64,000 nucleotides of DNA. Source: Vulcanimicrobiota bacterium. Lineage in GTDB: Bacteria; Vulcanimicrobiota; Vulcanimicrobiia; Vulcanimicrobiales; Vulcanimicrobiaceae. Within the stretch, counting starts at the first letter, position 1, and the number at the start of each line of letters is the position of its first letter. Made by a program: the position numbers. The stretch is from assembly GCA_963723515.1 (NCBI GenBank), contig CAVRQT010000003.1:832001-896000 (forward strand). Direction: 5' to 3'. Shown piece after piece: positions 30,001 to 36,000 of this stretch.

Positions 30001-33000
30001 AACACGTGACAATTATCGCGGCGTTAGAACGATCGCGGTAAGACAACCGCCAGGTTTCGGAGCGCGTCTTTCGCTTTGTCTTCGTCGATAATACCGACGT
30101 GGCCCGAAACCGACACGACTATTCCGCGCCGGCCGTCGATCGTCGCATATGCGTATTGCTGCATCGAATCGAACCCTTCGCCGTAGGCAAACTTGAACCA
30201 ATAAGCCGGCATTCCGTTGGGCAATCGCGTCAAGACTTTCTTGCTCACAAAGAGCCCGTCGATTTGGTTGCGCAAATCGTTTTCGACGATCTGTTCGAAA
30301 TCGTTGAGCCCGCTTGGAAAGAGCACCATCATGATCAAGATCGTGAGCTGATCTTCCTTACCCCGGTTGTGAACGTACGCCGCTACGGGCGAGAGATGCG
30401 GCTGCTCCGATAAATCAACAGGCGGCACGGTGACGGCATCAAAATCGGGCGGCGGCTGAAACCGCACCGTATCGTCGGTATAAAGCGGCGCATCTGCCCT
30501 TGCGGGCGCCGGATTAACAAGCCCTATTCCGCAAACAATTACGGCGCAGAGGCAGGCTGCCAGCGAAAAACGGTTCATTCCCTCTCCAAGATGTTCGTCA
30601 AGAGCGGCATCGATACCGCGTAACGATACCCGACATTGCGATGGTCGTCATCGAACTCTTCGTGGATGACCTTCAACCCGAAGTCGCGGACGCGCTGCGT
30701 AAAGACACGCGCTCCGATATCGAGCCCGTACTCATCGCGGCGGCCGCAGTCGAGGTAACGCAAGCGAAGCCTCTCCAGTTCCGGCTGCTTTGCTAGGCAC
30801 ATGTCCGCCGGATCGTGCGCGCGCCAGCGCGCGAATACTTCTTCCACGAGCTGGCCCGTTTTGCGATCGACCGGCAAATCCAAATCGAATGCCGTCGCGC
30901 TGTGCGGAGAATACGCAGAGGCGTATCCGAGCATTTCGATTGTCTGGTATTCGGCGGTTTGCCGCTTATTTTGCTCCTCGAAGTGCTCCACGAACTTGCG
31001 GATGTTCCAGTCAAATTTTTCCAGCGTCCGATGCAACGCCGGGAAAGCCGGTGGATGCGCATAGGTGAAATACGAGTCGCCGCTGTGCGAAGCAAATGCC
31101 GCAAAGGCTCCGGGGCGCGTCATGCACAAAAACAGCGATCCAAAGCCGCCCGACGACTTGCCGAGCACGGCGCGGCCTCCTTCGGCGGCGATCGTTCGGT
31201 ACGCGCGATCCACATGCGGAATCACTTCGTCGATAACATAGTCGGCATAGTTGCCGTTGTGCACCGAGTTCATGTATTGCGATCCGCCCAGGCGCGTGAA
31301 GCCGTCGACGATCGCGAGAATCGCAGGCGGCATCTTTTTCTCGCCGATCAACCGGTCGATCCACTGCACGACATTGGTCTCCCAAGGCCGCGCTGAGACG
31401 AGCGCCGCGACGTCCCCAGTATAGCCGTGCAAACAATACAGCGTTGGATAACGCTTGGAGGCTTCGGCATCGTACCGCTCCGGTAAATAGACCGCAATGG
31501 CGCGTTGCGAGGGGTCGCCCAATGGATTGTCGCGCAAGGCTGCGCTGTCGATAAAGTCGATACGAAGATCGCCCTCGAGACGCAAGAGCCGCGCAAGGTC
31601 TGATTGAGCCATGCCGGCGTCATTCTCCGCCGCGAGGGCCCACTCCGACCCCACCGAATCCGGAGCGCCACATGATTCGCGGTGTCGGATTGCGTGGCGC
31701 GATCTCCGTCAACATCATCACGATGATCGGGATCGGGCCGCTGATCACGATTCCGCTCGTCGTCGGCGCATTGCACGGCGGTCTCGCGATCGCCGGATGG
31801 GTGATCGGCGCGATCATTGCGCTTTGCGATGGACTCGTGTGGGCGGAGCTGAGCTCTCGCTATCCCGGTTCAGGCGGTACGTATGTCTATCTGCGCGAGG
31901 CGTTTGGGCGGAAAAGCTGGGGCCGGCTGTTCGCCTTCCTCTTCAATTGGCAGTTCTTCTTCTGTGCACCGCTGCTTCTCGCGAGCGGGTATATCGGATT
32001 CGCACAATACGCGAGCTATTTGTTTCCGCAACTCGGTGCAAATCTTGGACTGCAGCATCTTGTTGCGGCGGCGCTCGCGATTGTGGTTTTGGTGTTGCTC
32101 TATCGTCGCGTAACAACGGTGACGCTCATCGCAACCGCCCTTGCCATAACGGCGCTCATCACGCTTATCACCGTCATCGCAGCCGGCGCGCCTCATATTC
32201 ATGCGGCTGCCTTCTCGTCCCCGAAGCCGCCGAATGCAAGCGCTTTTATGCTTGCGCTCGGGACGGCGCTCGTCATCACTCTCTATGACTATGCCGGTTA
32301 CAATAGCGCAGCGCTCATCGGTGATGAGATCGTGGCGCCGGTGCGCACGATTCCGCGATCGATCGTGCTCTCAATTGCAATCATCGCGGCGCTCTACATC
32401 CTGCTTCAGGTTTCTGTCTTGAGCGTTGTTCCTTGGCCACAGATTGTCGCTTCAAAATCACAATTCGTTGCTGCCAGCGCGATCGAAAACGTTTGGGGCG
32501 CCGCCTCGGCGCGCGTGGTGACCGTACTGATCTTGATCACGGCGTTCGCCTCAACATATGGGGTTCTGCTCGGTTTTTCTCGCATTCCATATGCAGCGGC
32601 ACTTGACGACGAATTCTTTCCTGTGTTCGGCCGACTCCATCCGCGCGGCCGATTTCCATATGTCTCGCTGCTGGTAATCGGGCTTTTGGCGATTCCAGCG
32701 TGCTTTTTTACGCTTGATGCCGTCATCTCGTTTCTCATCGCGGGAATCGTGCTGATTCAATCGATCGCCCAGATCGCCGCCCTCTTGATCTTCCGAAGGC
32801 GGGAAGGGGCGGCTCCGTTTAGCATGTGGCTCTTTCCGATCCCGGCGATCGTCGCGCTGCTCGCTTGGCTTTTCATCTTCTACTCTTCCGGAAAGAGCGC
32901 GATGCTCTACGGAACGCTTACGTTGTTGGCGGGTGTCATCGCGTATCTGATCACGGCACGCGTTCAGCGACGGTGGCCGTTCTTGGTGACCGTGGCTCTC

Positions 33001-36000
33001 GTAGCGCTTTGCTGCACGGCCGGCCGGCCCGCAAACGCGGCAAGCTTCGGCTCGAGCGCCATCGTGCAGCGCAATGGTTATCCCATTTTCACCGTTGACG
33101 GTAAACCGTTCTTTATCTATGGCGCGGCGTTCTTTTACGAGCGCATTCCGCGGGGGCTCTGGCGACAATCGCTCGTGGCATACAAAGCGCTTGGAATCAA
33201 CACGATCGACCTCTACGTCATTTGGAATTGGCATGAATTGCACGACGGCGATTTTGATTTTACGGGACGCACGAATCCACGCCGCGATCTACGTGGACTT
33301 TTGCAGCTGATCCATCGTTTCGGATTTCATACGATTATCCGGCCCGGCCCCGTGATTCGCAATGAGTGGCGCAACGGCGGCTATCCGGCGTGGCTTCTGG
33401 AGCGCCCGGAATACAATATGCCGCTGCACGACGTGCTCGAAGGGCGCTATCCCGCAACGGCGACCTTGCAGAATGCGCATTCCGATCAAGCAGCCGCCGA
33501 ATGGATGAGCAACTCGACGCATCTCCGCTACGCCGATCGCTGGCTAAGACGTGCGTTGATGGAAGTCGCCCCGTGGGGACGAGATGTGCTTGCGATTGCG
33601 CTCGATGACGATCAAGGCGCGTATCTCAACAATCAAACGTGGCCCGCGGCAAATTTTCAAGCCTACCTTCATCATCTGGCCGGCACGGTGCGATCGGTGG
33701 CCGGGACATCGATTCCGCTCTTCATCAACACATATCAGATGAAGGTCACCGCGTCGGCGCCGGTTTGGGCGTGGGGCAACTGGTATCAAAGCGAGGCATA
33801 TCATCTCGGCGAGCACGACCGTCGCGAGTTAGAGTTTTCCACTGCGCTCCTTGCGACGCAACCGCATCTTCCCGTTATGCAGAGCGAATTTCAAGCCGGC
33901 TGGCTGCAGGGTCCCGATCAGGCGCATCCGCGGCGTGTTGCTCCGGAAAACACCGCACTTGCTTTACACACCTTGCTCCAGTCAGGGACGCGCGGCATCG
34001 TCAACTTTCCGGTTCAAGATACTGTCTATCCCAGCGGCTGGGAAGTGCCGTTTGCGAATGCCTCCTACGCCTGGGATGCGGCTCTCACACTCGACGGACG
34101 GCACAATGCACGGTACCGCCCGACGATGGAGTTCGGGCAGTTGATTTCCAAGTACGGAAGACTTCTCGCGCAGACACATCGCGTTGCGGACGCCGCGATT
34201 GCCTATACCGTTAGCGCGTATGACCCCTTACAACTCAACGATGTTCGGCTTGACCAGGCTGTTACCGCGACCCGCGACGCCCTCACGGATTGCCGCACTC
34301 TGCGCCTAAGCTGCGATCTCGTCGATTTGCGGTACGCAAAGGATCGCGACTTGGAGCCTTACCGCTACCTTGTCGTGCCTCTCGTCAACGCATTGCCGTT
34401 GCAAGCAGCGATCTCAGCGAAACTCAAGCGGCTTGCGCCGCGTGTGCATATCGTCAGCTCGGTCGTCGAGGTGCATCCAGCAAAGCGTGCGGTCAATATC
34501 GCCAATGCCGTATTAAGTGTCAGCAGCGGGAAAGAACCGTTCGGCTTTCTCGATATCGTCAATTACGATCTGCGGCCTCGCTCAACAGGGCCAATACGGA
34601 TGCAACTCACACCAGCCAAGCAAGTGCGTCTTCCATCGGTTCGCCTCGCGGGCGCATCCGGTCTGTTGATTCCGATCAATCTCAGGCCATCAGATGTTGC
34701 GCAAAAAATCGCGGCACGACCAAGCGGACCGCCGACGCAACGACCTTGCCTTCAACCAGCGGCGCTGCTCTTTGCCGGCATCTGTTGGCGACTGCCGCCG
34801 ATCCGTTCCACAGCAGCCGCTCCAAGTGTGCCAATCGCGCGCCGCGTCGATGTAACGCAAGACGGCGAACCGTGGATCCTCCTCGCGAACCCAACGGCCA
34901 CCCTTGGCATCGCCCCGTTAGCCGGTGCGCGAGCGTTCGTCTTTCAAAATGGCCAAAGCGATGCATTTACGTCCACCGGTGCACTGCGTGACGACGTTGA
35001 TCCCGCACCAACGCCGTCGGCCCGAGACTACATCAGCACGTACACACATCAATTTCCGGCCGGTACCTTCAATCGTGCCTATGACTGTCGGATTCTCAAG
35101 GATGGCGCTCAGACAGCGTGCATGTATTTCGCGCCCGACCTCGGCACGCACTTTGAGCGGGCGATCACCATGCAACCAAAATCGCCGGCCTTTACATTAC
35201 GACTGCGCATGACGTCATCGGACCCGAAAAAACGAGGCGTGTTGCTGAGTGCGCTTTCGATCTCGAGCGCACTATCGCAATTCGTATCAGGAGCAATCAG
35301 CCGCTACACAGCGGGGGCAACGACTCCCGTCATGGACGGCGCTTTTGGATTCTACGATCCGACGACGCGAAAAGTGGCAACGGTCTGCTGGCCGCCACAA
35401 GAGCCGTTACAAGTCAACGTCGATGAGAAACCGGACGCAGCGATCGTGCGAGTCGTCTACCCTCCGGACACTTGGCAGAGCATCACGTTCGGCTATTATG
35501 CGGTTGCTGATCTTACCCAAGCGCGCAGCGTTGTTCAAGAGCTAAAAGGACGCGCATGCGTCGACGCGAACGGGCGGTAAGCCGTTAGGGGAAGTGGCGG
35601 AACGGTAGACGCAGCCGCCTCAAAAGCGGCCGAGCAAAACTCGTGTGGGTTCAAATCCCACCTTCCCCAGGGCACGAATTTTGACTTCAGACGTTGAACG
35701 AACGGTTATCTTTAGTCGGCGGCCGCTGCACGGCAACCTACGTGTGCCCGGCGACAAGTCGATTTCGCATCGGGCTTTGATCGTCGGCGCGGCGCTCTCC
35801 GAGCCGCTTCAAATACAAAATCTCAATACGGGCGCCGATGTTCTTGCAACCGCAGATGCGCTGCGAGCGCTCGGGGCCGCTATCTCGCTCGATGGTCAAT
35901 CAGCGACGGTAACGCCCGCGCATTTGCATGACGCCGCCGAAACGATTGACTGCCGAAATTCTGCTTCAACGGCACGGATGGTTCTGGGTGTTTGCGCCGG

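Follow-up and report, generated by a model that had tools for sequence, protein, structure and literature searches.

A single gene joins an APC/LAT-type permease to a GH35-like enzyme through a signal-peptide-like helix in a Vulcanimicrobiota bacterium

Gene structure and genomic context

In the 64,000-nucleotide window analyzed here (contig CAVRQT010000003.1, positions 832,001 to 896,000; assembly GCA_963723515.1, Vulcanimicrobiota bacterium), one ATG-initiated reading frame, the sole long ORF at its position, encodes a permease, a thirteenth hydrophobic helix and a GH35-like enzyme as a single polypeptide (Table 1). A Shine-Dalgarno-like GGAG lies 6 nt upstream of the start codon, and the first residues, MIRG(I/V)GLRGA, are the same in homologues. 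The first-pass annotation had described a 12-helix permease, a 13th helix and a GH35 domain, and this architecture was borne out by the ORF, by the alignment to BasC (see below) and by Pfam matches that exactly reproduced the annotated ranges (AA_permease_2 at residues 17–404, 2.1e-39; Glyco_hydro_35 at residues 473–582, 2.1e-33).

Table 1 Features of the fusion gene, with positions counted in the window
Feature	Position	Strand	Basis
Whole ORF: permease, helix 13 and GH35-like enzyme	31672..35580	+	1302 aa plus stop; Pfam
GGAG, Shine-Dalgarno-like	31662..31665	+	sequence inspection
Permease module, residues 1–434, 12-helix APC/LAT-type; conserved tail AR.QR(R).WPF, predicted cytoplasmic	31672..32973	+	Pfam; BasC alignment
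Helix 13, internal signal-peptide-like segment, residues 435–456, WPF LVTVALVALCCTAG RP ANA	32974..33039	+	hydropathy, conservation
Predicted signal peptidase I site, Ala456/Ala457 (A454-N455-A456 / A457)	33037..33042	+	motif comparison
GH35-like catalytic domain, residues ~466–823, presumed TIM barrel	33067..34140	+	Pfam; GlmA matches; IaSGT and GLB1 alignments
D645-D646-D647-Q648, acid/base position	33604..33615	+	invariance in homologues; GlmA profile alignment
S738-E739-F-Q-A-G-W744, nucleophile motif (Glu739)	33883..33903	+	invariance; IaSGT and GLB1 alignments
GlmA/GH42-type second-domain-like region, residues ~824–1000, with Cys874/Cys881	34141..34671	+	weak profile matches
Conserved C-terminal region, residues 1040–1302, no known family	34789..35577	+	conservation

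The fusion gene is present once in its own genome (88% complete), and its neighbors are housekeeping genes. Gene order is conserved in all but a few of 80 loci from other species, with PLP enzymes, a 184-aa ORF and an esterase upstream and aroA downstream. The genome contains signal peptidase I genes as well as an Omp85/BamA-family gene, the latter indicating a diderm host. The host, a soil bacterium, belongs to Eremiobacterota, a phylum about which little is known. Neither a NagB-type GlcN-6-P deaminase nor a GH18 chitinase gene was found in this 88% complete genome, in which the single PF01182 match is Pgl. These searches gave no direct support to the proposals that the protein includes the first APC amino-sugar permease and that it releases glucosamine from chitosan.

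Permease module

Among solved structures, the permease is closest to BasC and the human SLC7 light chains xCT, y+LAT1 and LAT1. BasC (6f2g/9h76), a 12-helix bacterial LAT, aligns end to end with residues 10–425 (BasC 9–424; 3e-22). Even though all 12 helices are covered and the Pfam family is shared, similarity to the BasC/LAT/SLC7 group is low (82 bits), and the permease falls below every NCBIfam subfamily cut-off, with the FrlA model (1.4e-25) far under its own. The LAT-typical TM5 lysine (BasC Lys154) aligns with Ala161 in a low-confidence stretch, and the exported C-terminal enzyme further distinguishes this protein from the BasC group. Amine and fructoselysine transporters are among the APC-family matches of the permease. 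The module ends in RVQRRWPF, a tail with three arginines that is assigned to the cytoplasm from the predicted topology; helix 13 then runs from inside to outside, followed by the enzyme.

GH35-like enzyme

The C-terminal part has its best solved relatives among archaeal GlmA-type GH35 enzymes (8oug, 5gsl, 6jow and 5gsm; ~1e-31 over residues 466–582), and a profile search against GlmA structures gave values of 1e-46 to 1e-49. The strong Pfam match is confined to the first third of the GH35 profile (positions 2–107 of 319). The 'complete GH35 domain set' of the first-pass annotation therefore needs qualifying: the rest of the domain is divergent and was placed by profile alignments only.

Among 120 homologues, D646, D647, Q648 and E739 are invariant (120/120). 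Profile alignment matches 'vqLDDD' with 'vtIDDE' of GlmA; in TkGlmA, Asp178 binds the GlcN amine and Glu179 is the acid/base (available text of PMC6566704). On this alignment, D646 would be the counterpart of amine-binding Asp178, supporting the GlmA-like affinity noted earlier, and D647 would replace the acid/base Glu179. The Glu739 motif aligns with 'AAEFQAG' of IaSGT (profile E 0.004), in which E343 (counted in 7vkw chain numbering, assumed to equal that of the paper) is the nucleophile (PMC8861115, in excerpt), and weakly (E 0.14) with 'SEFYTGW' of human GLB1 (E268 by our own count, with an inferred chain offset of +23); both alignments extend through about residue 845. The catalytic glutamates, which the first-pass annotation had left unchecked, thus differ in their fate, since the nucleophile is kept as Glu739 in these alignments whereas Asp647 stands where the acid/base Glu would be expected. 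Several further residues of the -1 subsite are changed as well. In the weak GLB1 alignment (E 0.14), the galactose-binding residues are mostly changed (Asn187 to Asp, Glu188 to Asp, Tyr270 to Gln, Tyr306 to Asn, Tyr333 to Trp and Ala128 to Asn). Because the acid/base Glu and the counterparts of the three tyrosines have changed, activity and specificity are uncertain.

These alignments place the enzyme, as a divergent member, in the GlmA/IaSGT branch of GH35. The enzyme shares with GlmA an Asp-Asp-X at the end of strand 4, the counterparts of Tyr53 and Glu103 (Tyr489 and Glu565) and a weakly similar second domain. However, 'YICGEW' of GlmA is 'VIRNEW' here, Tyr379 corresponds to Asn778/Phe779, and the score of 118.9 falls short of the NCBIfam equivalog cut-off of 1500. 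An export signal is absent from GlmA, whereas the present enzyme is exported and fused to a permease; it also exceeds the solved GlmA chains (762–786 aa) in length by about 60–85 residues and has an unassigned C-terminal region. IaSGT, a GH35 beta-1,2-glucosyltransferase of Ignavibacterium album (7vkw/7vkx), has the identical EFQAG nucleophile motif, aligns by profile over chain residues 281–441 and is similar in the N-terminal third of the barrel. In contrast to the exported enzyme with Asp646-Asp647, IaSGT is cytosolic and carries Asn175-Glu176 at the acid/base site, as stated in the available part of PMC8861115.

The second-domain region gave weak profile matches to residues 350–540 of GlmA chains (i-E 6.7–180), and PF22369 (GLMA_2nd) appeared under cut-off in 6 of 18 scanned relatives, of which 15 were distant and 3 close. 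Its Cys874/Cys881 pair is invariant in 50/50 sequences, which fits an oxidizing compartment. Residues 1040–1302 include many invariant positions; a Pfam search with this region returned zero matches even at E 10, and in Atlas it fell with unnamed clusters (0.90–0.91), with a weak lead to DUF4380 (0.87).

Helix 13 and the predicted cleavage site

Helix 13 has a hydropathy peak of 1.55, the lowest except for the TM6 region (1.45), and a short hydrophobic core of ~12–15 residues. It is also the least conserved segment, with a majority-residue fraction of 0.32, compared to 0.86, 0.79, 0.75 and 0.59 in TM1, TM8, TM11 and TM12 (the permease helices measured) and 0.65–0.81 at the start of the mature enzyme. 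In 43 of 48 fused homologues, an A-x-A motif occurs 15–37 residues past the conserved Trp; the other five have none in the expected range. Where the motif is present, the median distance from Trp to position -1 is 21 residues, and in 32 of the 43 a Pro lies at most five residues before position -3; the commonest residue at -2 of the predicted cut in fused homologues is Arg. The last 16 linker residues contain A-x-A in 48 of 52 loci; in 16-residue windows taken from the same proteins, the motif occurs in 75% of the Ala-rich ones and in 27% overall. The enrichment is therefore modest when the Ala-rich windows, the fair control, are considered.

Fusion and separation of the modules

Comparison of the 80 loci identified 53 fused, 24 GH35-only and 3 split-looking cases, the last comprising two frameshifts and one true pair of separate, adjacent genes (L044). 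Among the best 120 homologues of the C-terminal part, 81 have both modules (905–1437 aa, median 1290) and 39 the GH part only. In a 401-genome sample of the phylum, the joint is open, with no stop, in 149 of 150 junction matches listed (at least 149 genomes). The fusion is thus genuine and no assembly artefact, as the first-pass annotation had argued, and the taxonomic range given there (named carriers nearly all Eremiobacterota/Vulcanimicrobiaceae) also held.

The 24 GH35-only loci share the same synteny, and their signal peptides end at the same aligned place. These N-terminal signal peptides show that the enzyme is exported, in agreement with the extracytoplasmic position first deduced from hydropathy. 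Close stand-alone permease orthologues (53–56% identical) were found in four of five GH35-only genomes and are missing in the fifth; two of the four end right after WPF and two before it. Conversely, the permease is kept in three of five genomes without a GH35-like gene (94–98% complete). A second close permease copy was found neither in the five fused genomes examined nor in the genome studied here. Thus, the two modules are separable, and either may be present in the absence of its partner. The fused or stand-alone state switches 11 times on the GH tree (at least seven switches are forced by well-supported branches), which shows how readily helix 13 takes the role of an ordinary N-terminal signal peptide. 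Fused forms occupy the earliest branch and most clades, and the fusion, the majority state, persists among sequences diverged to 45–50% identity.

Discussion

The gene may encode a precursor of two parts, with helix 13 serving to export the enzyme and a probable cut behind A454-N455-A456; taken as a whole, we give this reading an even chance. Residues 435–456 resemble an internal Sec-type export signal (positive n-region, short variable core, Pro followed by Ala-x-Ala) that would thread the subsequent 846 residues into the periplasm, and signal peptidase I would most likely cut after Ala456, so that the permease would keep the 13th helix and the enzyme (~93 kDa) would be free in the periplasm. 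There is a precedent in FbcH, the cytochrome b/c1 precursor of Bradyrhizobium japonicum, a membrane polyprotein split at an internal signal peptide into two products. Both proteins have a polytopic membrane part, a signal-peptide-like segment and an exported part, although cleavage of the present protein is predicted and its partners are a permease and a glycosidase rather than subunits of one known complex.

The first-pass annotation had favored a permanently tethered hydrolase-transporter machine, with helix 13 as an uncleaved anchor and the enzyme handing an amine-bearing product (e.g., glucosamine) to its fused importer. The age and majority status of the fusion (53/80 loci, an open joint in nearly all junction matches listed) argue for it, and since the fusion has been kept so long, physical linkage itself could be selected, which counts against cleavage. 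The modules are also mostly co-retained, Asp646 matches the amine-binding residue of GlmA, and the APC-family matches include amine and fructoselysine transporters. However, helix 13 is short, variable and ends like a signal peptidase substrate, the conserved residues include no Cys or other residue pointing to a fixed interface, 24 of 80 species have a plain secreted enzyme, and either module can be missing. With NagB-type deaminase and GH18 also not found in the 88% complete genome, we regard tethering as doubtful and no longer the leading reading; cleavage at a signal segment, which the annotation had itself flagged as an alternative, fits the data better.

It is improbable that the protein is an ordinary beta-galactosidase fused by neutral read-through of adjacent genes without a functional link. 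The Pfam GH35 match and the database name 'beta-galactosidase' of unfused relatives favor this identity, and separable modules and the adjacent genes of L044 favor read-through, but most GLB1 galactose-binding residues are changed, the Asp-Asp-(Glu/Asp) and EFQAG motifs group the enzyme with GlmA/IaSGT rather than galactosidases, and the fusion is kept in most lineages across deep divergence. Least probable is a one-chain look-alike of the heteromeric SLC7/SLC3 (HAT) transporters with a structural or regulatory ectodomain like that of 4F2hc/rBAT, for even though the SLC7-like permease and the in-to-out helix before an outside glycosidase-fold domain are shared (PMC8537225 and PMC4192586, as far as their available text describes, with disulfide-joined chains and a GH13 ectodomain), the present domain is GH35 with invariant catalytic motifs, helix 13 is variable and signal-like, no conserved Cys could form an inter-part disulfide, the LAT-typical TM5 Lys aligns with Ala161 (low-confidence stretch), and the enzyme is secreted alone in many species.

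On the cleaved-precursor reading, the two halves are probably synthesized as one chain and parted afterwards, not kept as one tethered machine, and the fusion would mainly ensure that both are produced in equal amounts and reach the same site. The enzyme would probably release a terminal sugar that is beta-linked and carries an amine, and the amine-bearing product may be imported by the permease, a coupling that would not be obligatory.

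The fused gene and its neighbourhood

The gene encoding the 1302-aa protein has GGAG 6 nt upstream of its ATG and is present as one copy in its own genome (2.11 Mb, 88% complete). The Pfam matches recorded in the first-pass annotation were reproduced (AA_permease_2 at residues 17–404, 2.1e-39; Glyco_hydro_35 at 473–582, 2.1e-33). The GH35 profile (PF01301, clan GH-A) scored 116.7 bits, above its cut-off of 27, with a best stretch that spans just profile positions 2–107 of 319, and a further, weaker GH35 stretch turned up in a permissive Pfam scan. The best solved matches to residues 466–582 are GH35 enzymes of the type of GlmA, an exo-beta-D-glucosaminidase from archaea (8oug, 5gsl, 6jow, 5gsm; E ~1e-31). 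In NCBIfam, both halves fall outside any named equivalog and miss all cut-offs widely. The C-terminal 260 residues had zero Pfam matches even at E 10, and an Atlas search with them gave only clusters without a name, plus DUF4380 as a weak lead.

Genes neighbouring the fused gene encode PLP enzymes of Cys/Met metabolism, a 184-aa ORF, an esterase, aroA and an M20 amidohydrolase. Two PLP-enzyme genes, the 184-aa ORF and the esterase upstream, with aroA downstream, are common to the fused loci and to 24 loci that carry the enzyme gene without the permease part (hereafter, GH-only loci); this conserved synteny is uninformative about substrate. In a promoter scan, promoter-like sites were no commoner than chance, and terminator-like sites exceeded the shuffle mean, none of them being informative and none lying between the fused gene and aroA.

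Three successive upstream genes (window 25216–29475) each consist of two overlapping ORFs in different frames, which points to assembly indel errors or pseudogenes; unlike them, the 3.9-kb fused ORF is intact. The 6-phosphogluconolactonase gene (TIGR01198, 153 bits; G000:C3:462647-463310, L093/L094) is likewise in two frames, consistent with frameshifts scattered over this assembly. Upstream of the fused gene the 184-aa ORF is conserved, occurring in 55 related loci (cluster 1), and the 155-aa deaminase-fold protein is probably an ordinary tRNA/nucleotide deaminase.

Features of the window, with positions, strands and profile matches
Feature	Position	Strand	Remarks
Fused ORF, 1302 aa	31672..35580	+	ATG start; sole long ORF at this place
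CofD gene, broken, first ORF	25216-25746		profile 1-38
CofD gene, broken, second ORF	25652-26164		profile 37-195
PALP+CBS cystathionine-beta-synthase-like gene, broken, first ORF	26967-27614		PALP 3-93
PALP+CBS cystathionine-beta-synthase-like gene, broken, second ORF	27392-28378		PALP 156-295 + CBS
Cys_Met_Meta_PP gene, broken, first ORF	28607-29095		profile 77-164
Cys_Met_Meta_PP gene, broken, second ORF	28798-29475		profile 161-350
ORF, 184 aa	30024-30578	-	no Pfam or NCBIfam match
ORF, 236 aa	39431-40141	+	no Pfam or NCBIfam match
Cytidine/deoxycytidylate deaminase-fold protein, 155 aa	40413-40880	-	best Pfam MafB19-like deaminase (8.3e-34)

The fusion across Eremiobacterota

The fusion is real and common. 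With the C-terminal 850 residues as query, 8000 candidates were scored, and 814 of these proteins reached E ≤ 0.001. When the best 120 of these were scanned with purpose-built permease and GH HMMs, both matched in 81 (905–1437 aa, median 1290), the GH HMM alone in 39 (772–998 aa), and the permease HMM alone in none. We also scanned one genome per species (378 relatives) and retained the best 80 loci, of which 53 are fused in one frame, 24 have the GH alone and three look split. Two of the latter, L040 (6300–7100) and L069 (6900–7700), are fused genes with one frameshift apiece, located in L040 within helix 13, the hydrophobic segment (about residues 435–456) that joins permease and enzyme, and in L069 at the enzyme N-terminus. 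The third, L044 (5800–6900), has a separate permease gene ~0.8 kb upstream of a GH35 gene with its own signal peptide; it is the only case of separate adjacent genes among the best 80 of 378 species loci and may represent a halfway stage, either of fusion or of fission.

A query limited to the junction (residues 380–560) matched in 288 of 401 genomes sampled from the phylum: 276/296 in the family of the window genome (f1), 9/30 with weak matches in family f3, 1/1 in each of two other families, and none in 17 families (tallies take in 13 genomes flagged unpublished). The joint was spanned without a stop in 149 of the 150 junction matches listed, mostly in open frames of 1250–1590 aa. Some loci lie on contigs labelled Rhodospirillales, Alphaproteobacteria, Binatia or Acidiferrales (L063, L072, L078, L038, L017, L073); most of these have the Eremiobacterota synteny (e.g., L072, L078), which is largely absent in L017 (Binatia). 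The non-Eremiobacterota MAG labels may reflect mis-binning, not transfer.

The permease part

The permease matched PF13520 with 136.1 bits, and its residues 10–425 align end to end with residues 9–424 of the bacterial LAT transporter BasC (6f2g/9h76), in keeping with a 12-helix APC fold, followed among solved structures by human SLC7 light chains. Judged by these alignments, the permease is APC/LAT-like. All NCBIfam transporter subfamilies were missed (TIGR00909, 124.1 vs 556.8; TIGR00911, 98.7 vs 701.8; FrlA, 90.1 vs 800). The TM5 Lys that is conserved, and reportedly important, in LATs (BasC Lys154) aligns with Ala161 in a low-confidence stretch of the alignment, and there is no Lys in that helix.

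The enzyme part

The acid/base region, L-D645-D646-D647-Q648-G-A-Y, is near-invariant among homologues (D646, D647 and Q648 in 120/120; D645 in 118/120), and the nucleophile motif S-E739-F-Q-A-G-W-L is equally invariant (E739 in 120/120). A family profile alignment pairs 'viavqLDDD' with 'iinvtIDDE' of GlmA. For the archaeal enzyme TkGlmA, Glu179 is reported to be the acid/base; the residue before it, Asp178, stands where galactosidases have Asn, is the one that binds GlcN at its C2 ammonium, and is indispensable (PMC6566704, section 4.3). Given this alignment and these reported roles, Asp646 is the counterpart of the amine-binding Asp178, and Asp647 occupies the acid/base position. The GH35 fold is a (beta/alpha)8 barrel with its two catalytic carboxylates about 5 Å apart. 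In this family strand 4 ends with the acid/base Glu (in Asn-Glu, or Asp-Glu in GlmA), where Asp647 is found here; Glu739 is the predicted strand-7 nucleophile, and Asp646 matches the Asp that precedes the acid/base residue in GlmA. A glucosaminidase in the sense of GlmA is not established, because one of its defining residues, the acid/base Glu, is replaced.

Sub-profile A3 (35 sequences) pairs 'PVMvSEFQAGW' with 'PVWAAEFQAG' of IaSGT, the GH35 beta-1,2-glucosyltransferase of Ignavibacterium album (7vkx/7vkw, E 0.004). The Glu matching E739 is E343, counted in 7vkw chain numbering and assumed equal to that of the paper (PMC8861115), which assigns E343 as nucleophile and Glu176, preceded by Asn175, as acid/base. 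A single-sequence alignment with human GLB1 was weak (E 0.14) yet motif-consistent (SEFQAGW vs 'SEFYTGW'), and pairs E739 with E268, Q741 with Tyr270, N778 with Tyr306, and W801 with Tyr333, where GLB1 numbers are the chain count plus an inferred offset of +23.

In the N-terminal third of the domain, Tyr489 and Glu565 are counterparts of TkGlmA Tyr53 and Glu103, whereas 'YICGEW' of GlmA is 'VIRNEW' in the window protein. The GlmA equivalog NF041127 scored 118.9 bits vs a cut-off of 1500, the match being confined to residues 472–578, and sub-threshold GLMA_2nd matches were found in 6/18 relatives scanned (15 distant, 3 close). DDDQ is present in six of seven distant relatives (29–34% identical), the one without it being P0194; the distant relatives inspected have signal-peptide-like hydrophobic N-termini, and two retain 'YICAEW'. 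The enzyme also contains an invariant Cys pair (Cys874/Cys881) that would fit a periplasmic protein. We conclude that the domain belongs to the GlmA/IaSGT branch, is under selection and probably active, and has had its −1 subsite remodelled; our best guess at the ligand of that site is an amine-bearing sugar.

Proteins P0159–P0176 (1080–1540 aa), one of them from an Acidoferrales MAG, form a wider group of secreted GH35-like proteins with 500–700 extra C-terminal residues that match no Pfam family; DDDQ replaces the acid/base Glu in those inspected, and the first 340 residues of P0170 resemble an over-extended ORF.

Helix 13 and the proposed processing of the fused product

Past TM12, homologues share the same order: a tail AR.QR(R).WPF, a variable hydrophobic stretch, typically Pro-x-x-Ala-x-Ala, and a conserved enzyme start (..SAIVQR.GYPVFTVDGKPFF). 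The window protein reads R431-V-Q-R-R-W435-P-F, LVTVALVALCCTAG, R-P453-A454-N455-A456 and then A457-S-F-G, so that the features of a signal peptide are all present: a positive n-region (R431, R434, R435), a short hydrophobic core (L438–A450), a helix breaker (P453), and small residues at −3 and −1 (A454-N455-A456). Conservation along the fused chain was compared between segments as the mean majority-residue fraction.

Conservation of permease, junction and enzyme segments in 50 fused homologues
Segment	Majority-residue fraction
TM1	0.86
TM8	0.79
TM11	0.75
TM12	0.59
Tail	0.67
Helix-13 core	0.32
c-region	0.54
Mature N-terminus	0.65
Next 40 residues	0.81

An A-x-A motif occurs 15–37 residues past the Trp in 43/48 fused homologues (two of the 50, which had no WPF match, were left out), with a median Trp-to-(−1) distance of 21 (range 17–29). 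A Pro lies ≤5 residues before −3 in 32 of these 43, and Arg is their commonest −2 residue. Across species loci, A-x-A was found within the last 16 linker residues in 48/52. Control windows contained A-x-A in 27% of all cases and in 75% of Ala-rich ones, which is only moderately lower, so the motif by itself suggests a cleavage site but does not decide the matter. Measured over 19 residues, the hydropathy of helix 13 peaks at 1.55, below every other hydropathy peak bar that of the TM6 region (1.45).

GH-only products start with ordinary N-terminal signal peptides whose ends coincide, in the alignment, with that of the helix-13 region (e.g., ...LLPLRANA|A and ...FPLHARA|A). Presence and absence were compared in five genomes per class (5 + 5 + 5). 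Four of the five GH-only genomes carry a stand-alone permease gene at another locus (53–56% identical), the best permease match in the fifth being just 31%; a second close copy was found in none of five fused genomes, nor in the window's own genome. The four stand-alone permeases, which have heterogeneous neighbours, end right after TM12, two with ...R(K/R)EWPF plus 4–6 residues and two before WPF, and helix 13 is therefore part of the enzyme, not of the permease. Among five f1 genomes (94–98% complete) in which no GH35-like gene was found, three have a stand-alone permease (48–54% identical) and two have none.

In a 12-helix APC fold both the N- and the C-terminus are inside. The tail of this permease is positively charged, unfused enzymes are secreted, and the organism, which is taken as diderm on account of an Omp85-family gene (100 bits), has two signal peptidase I matches (~100 bits); these points together place the enzyme part in the periplasm. 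The location proposed in the first-pass annotation is thus borne out by topology, by the signal peptides of GH-only orthologues and by the diderm cell plan.

Other readings of the junction were rejected. The RR before WPF is unconserved among homologues, and the tail that ends in WPF is part of the permease (Tat export); each Cys of helix 13 is preceded by Leu or Cys, not by the Gly, Ala or Ser that a lipobox has directly before its Cys (lipoprotein); and no convincing SD sequence or start codon lies upstream of helix 13 (internal translation start).

Helix 13 would act as an internal Sec-type signal that signal peptidase I cleaves after Ala456. We give about an even chance to the prediction that the gene product is such a precursor, cut after Ala456, and prefer it because helix 13 evolves like a signal peptide, unlike a packed transmembrane helix. 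In FbcH of Bradyrhizobium there is a precedent for a bacterial membrane polyprotein that is processed at an internal signal peptide; a literature search for this precedent gave nothing relevant. The permanently tethered hydrolase-transporter machine that had been proposed at first takes second place, as helix 13 is variable, short, A-x-A-ended and interchangeable with an N-terminal signal, and we regard it as somewhat unlikely. Its most novel form seems to us rather improbable: helix 13 would stay uncut and hold, on the outer face of an SLC7-like permease, a GlmA-like glycosidase that is active and whose Asp acid/base is without precedent, and the permease would be fed by it with an amino sugar or a different product that bears an amine.

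A functional link is favoured by the existence of the fusion and by the permease retained in GH-only genomes (4/5), but an obligatory one is hard to reconcile with a permease without enzyme (3/5 genomes), an enzyme without a close permease (1/5), neighbours that are uninformative for the fused gene and the four stand-alone permeases alike, and an 88%-complete genome in which no NagB-type deaminase and no GH18 chitinase were found, the lone PF01182 match being Pgl (TIGR01198, 153 bits) in a search that covered PF01182 and GH18 but no other deaminase types, chitosanases or further routes. GlmA-like hydrolysis of chitosan oligosaccharides to GlcN has no support from genome context.

Fusion and fission history

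Trees were built with quick IQ-TREE searches (LG+G4). The GH-part tree (79 loci plus 4 outgroups) contains 11 changes between the fused and alone labels, at least seven of them forced by starred branches, with L040 and L044 labelled 'alone' even though these loci look split; its earliest branch consists of fused forms. The permease tree groups all four stand-alone genes in a single clade (support 100) that lies within the fused ones. Both topologies suggest that the permease part was lost repeatedly. A plausible history, drawn from four sampled stand-alone genes in a tree whose root was not inferred, is a single origin of the stand-alone copy followed by repeated loss of the fused gene's permease part in lineages that hold it.

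Comparison with heteromeric amino acid transporters and significance

Heteromeric amino acid transporters of eukaryotes (SLC7/SLC3), as described in the literature (PMC8537225, PMC4192586), have a GH13-type ectodomain, a conserved heavy-chain helix and an inter-part disulfide, whereas the window protein has a GH35-like domain with intact catalytic motifs, a variable helix 13 (majority fraction 0.32) and no invariant Cys in or beside that helix or within the loops of the permease; Cys is invariant at positions 874 and 881 alone. The likeness is therefore architectural only. Our literature search found no description of an APC–GH35 fusion or of a bacterial fusion resembling these transporters, which is no proof of absence. 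Taken singly, the parts are of familiar kinds (a permease of the APC superfamily, a GH35 from the GlmA/IaSGT branch, a signal peptide of Sec type); what seems new is their combination in one gene conserved across an Eremiobacterota family, the repeated fission at one syntenic locus, and the invariant Asp at the acid/base position.

If the precursor reading is true, the gene would be a widespread natural case in which one chain carries both a polytopic transporter and an exported enzyme and is then split at an internal signal peptide, which to our knowledge is rarely documented in bacteria. If the chain stays whole, it would be a new way to couple depolymerisation with uptake; uncut and coupled, it would be the bacterial equivalent of the SLC7/SLC3 architecture, with live catalysis, and the first case of a glycosidase coupled to an importer of the APC family. 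Under either processing reading, the enzyme marks out a subgroup of GH35 in which Asp-Asp-Asp-Gln is invariant at the position of the family's acid/base Glu, and so poses a testable question on the mechanism and specificity of clan GH-A. With its repeated fusion and fission, this one locus is a clean setting in which to ask what a cell gains from fusing genes, and the gene is a pointer to a so far uncharacterised route of nutrition in a soil phylum about which little is known.
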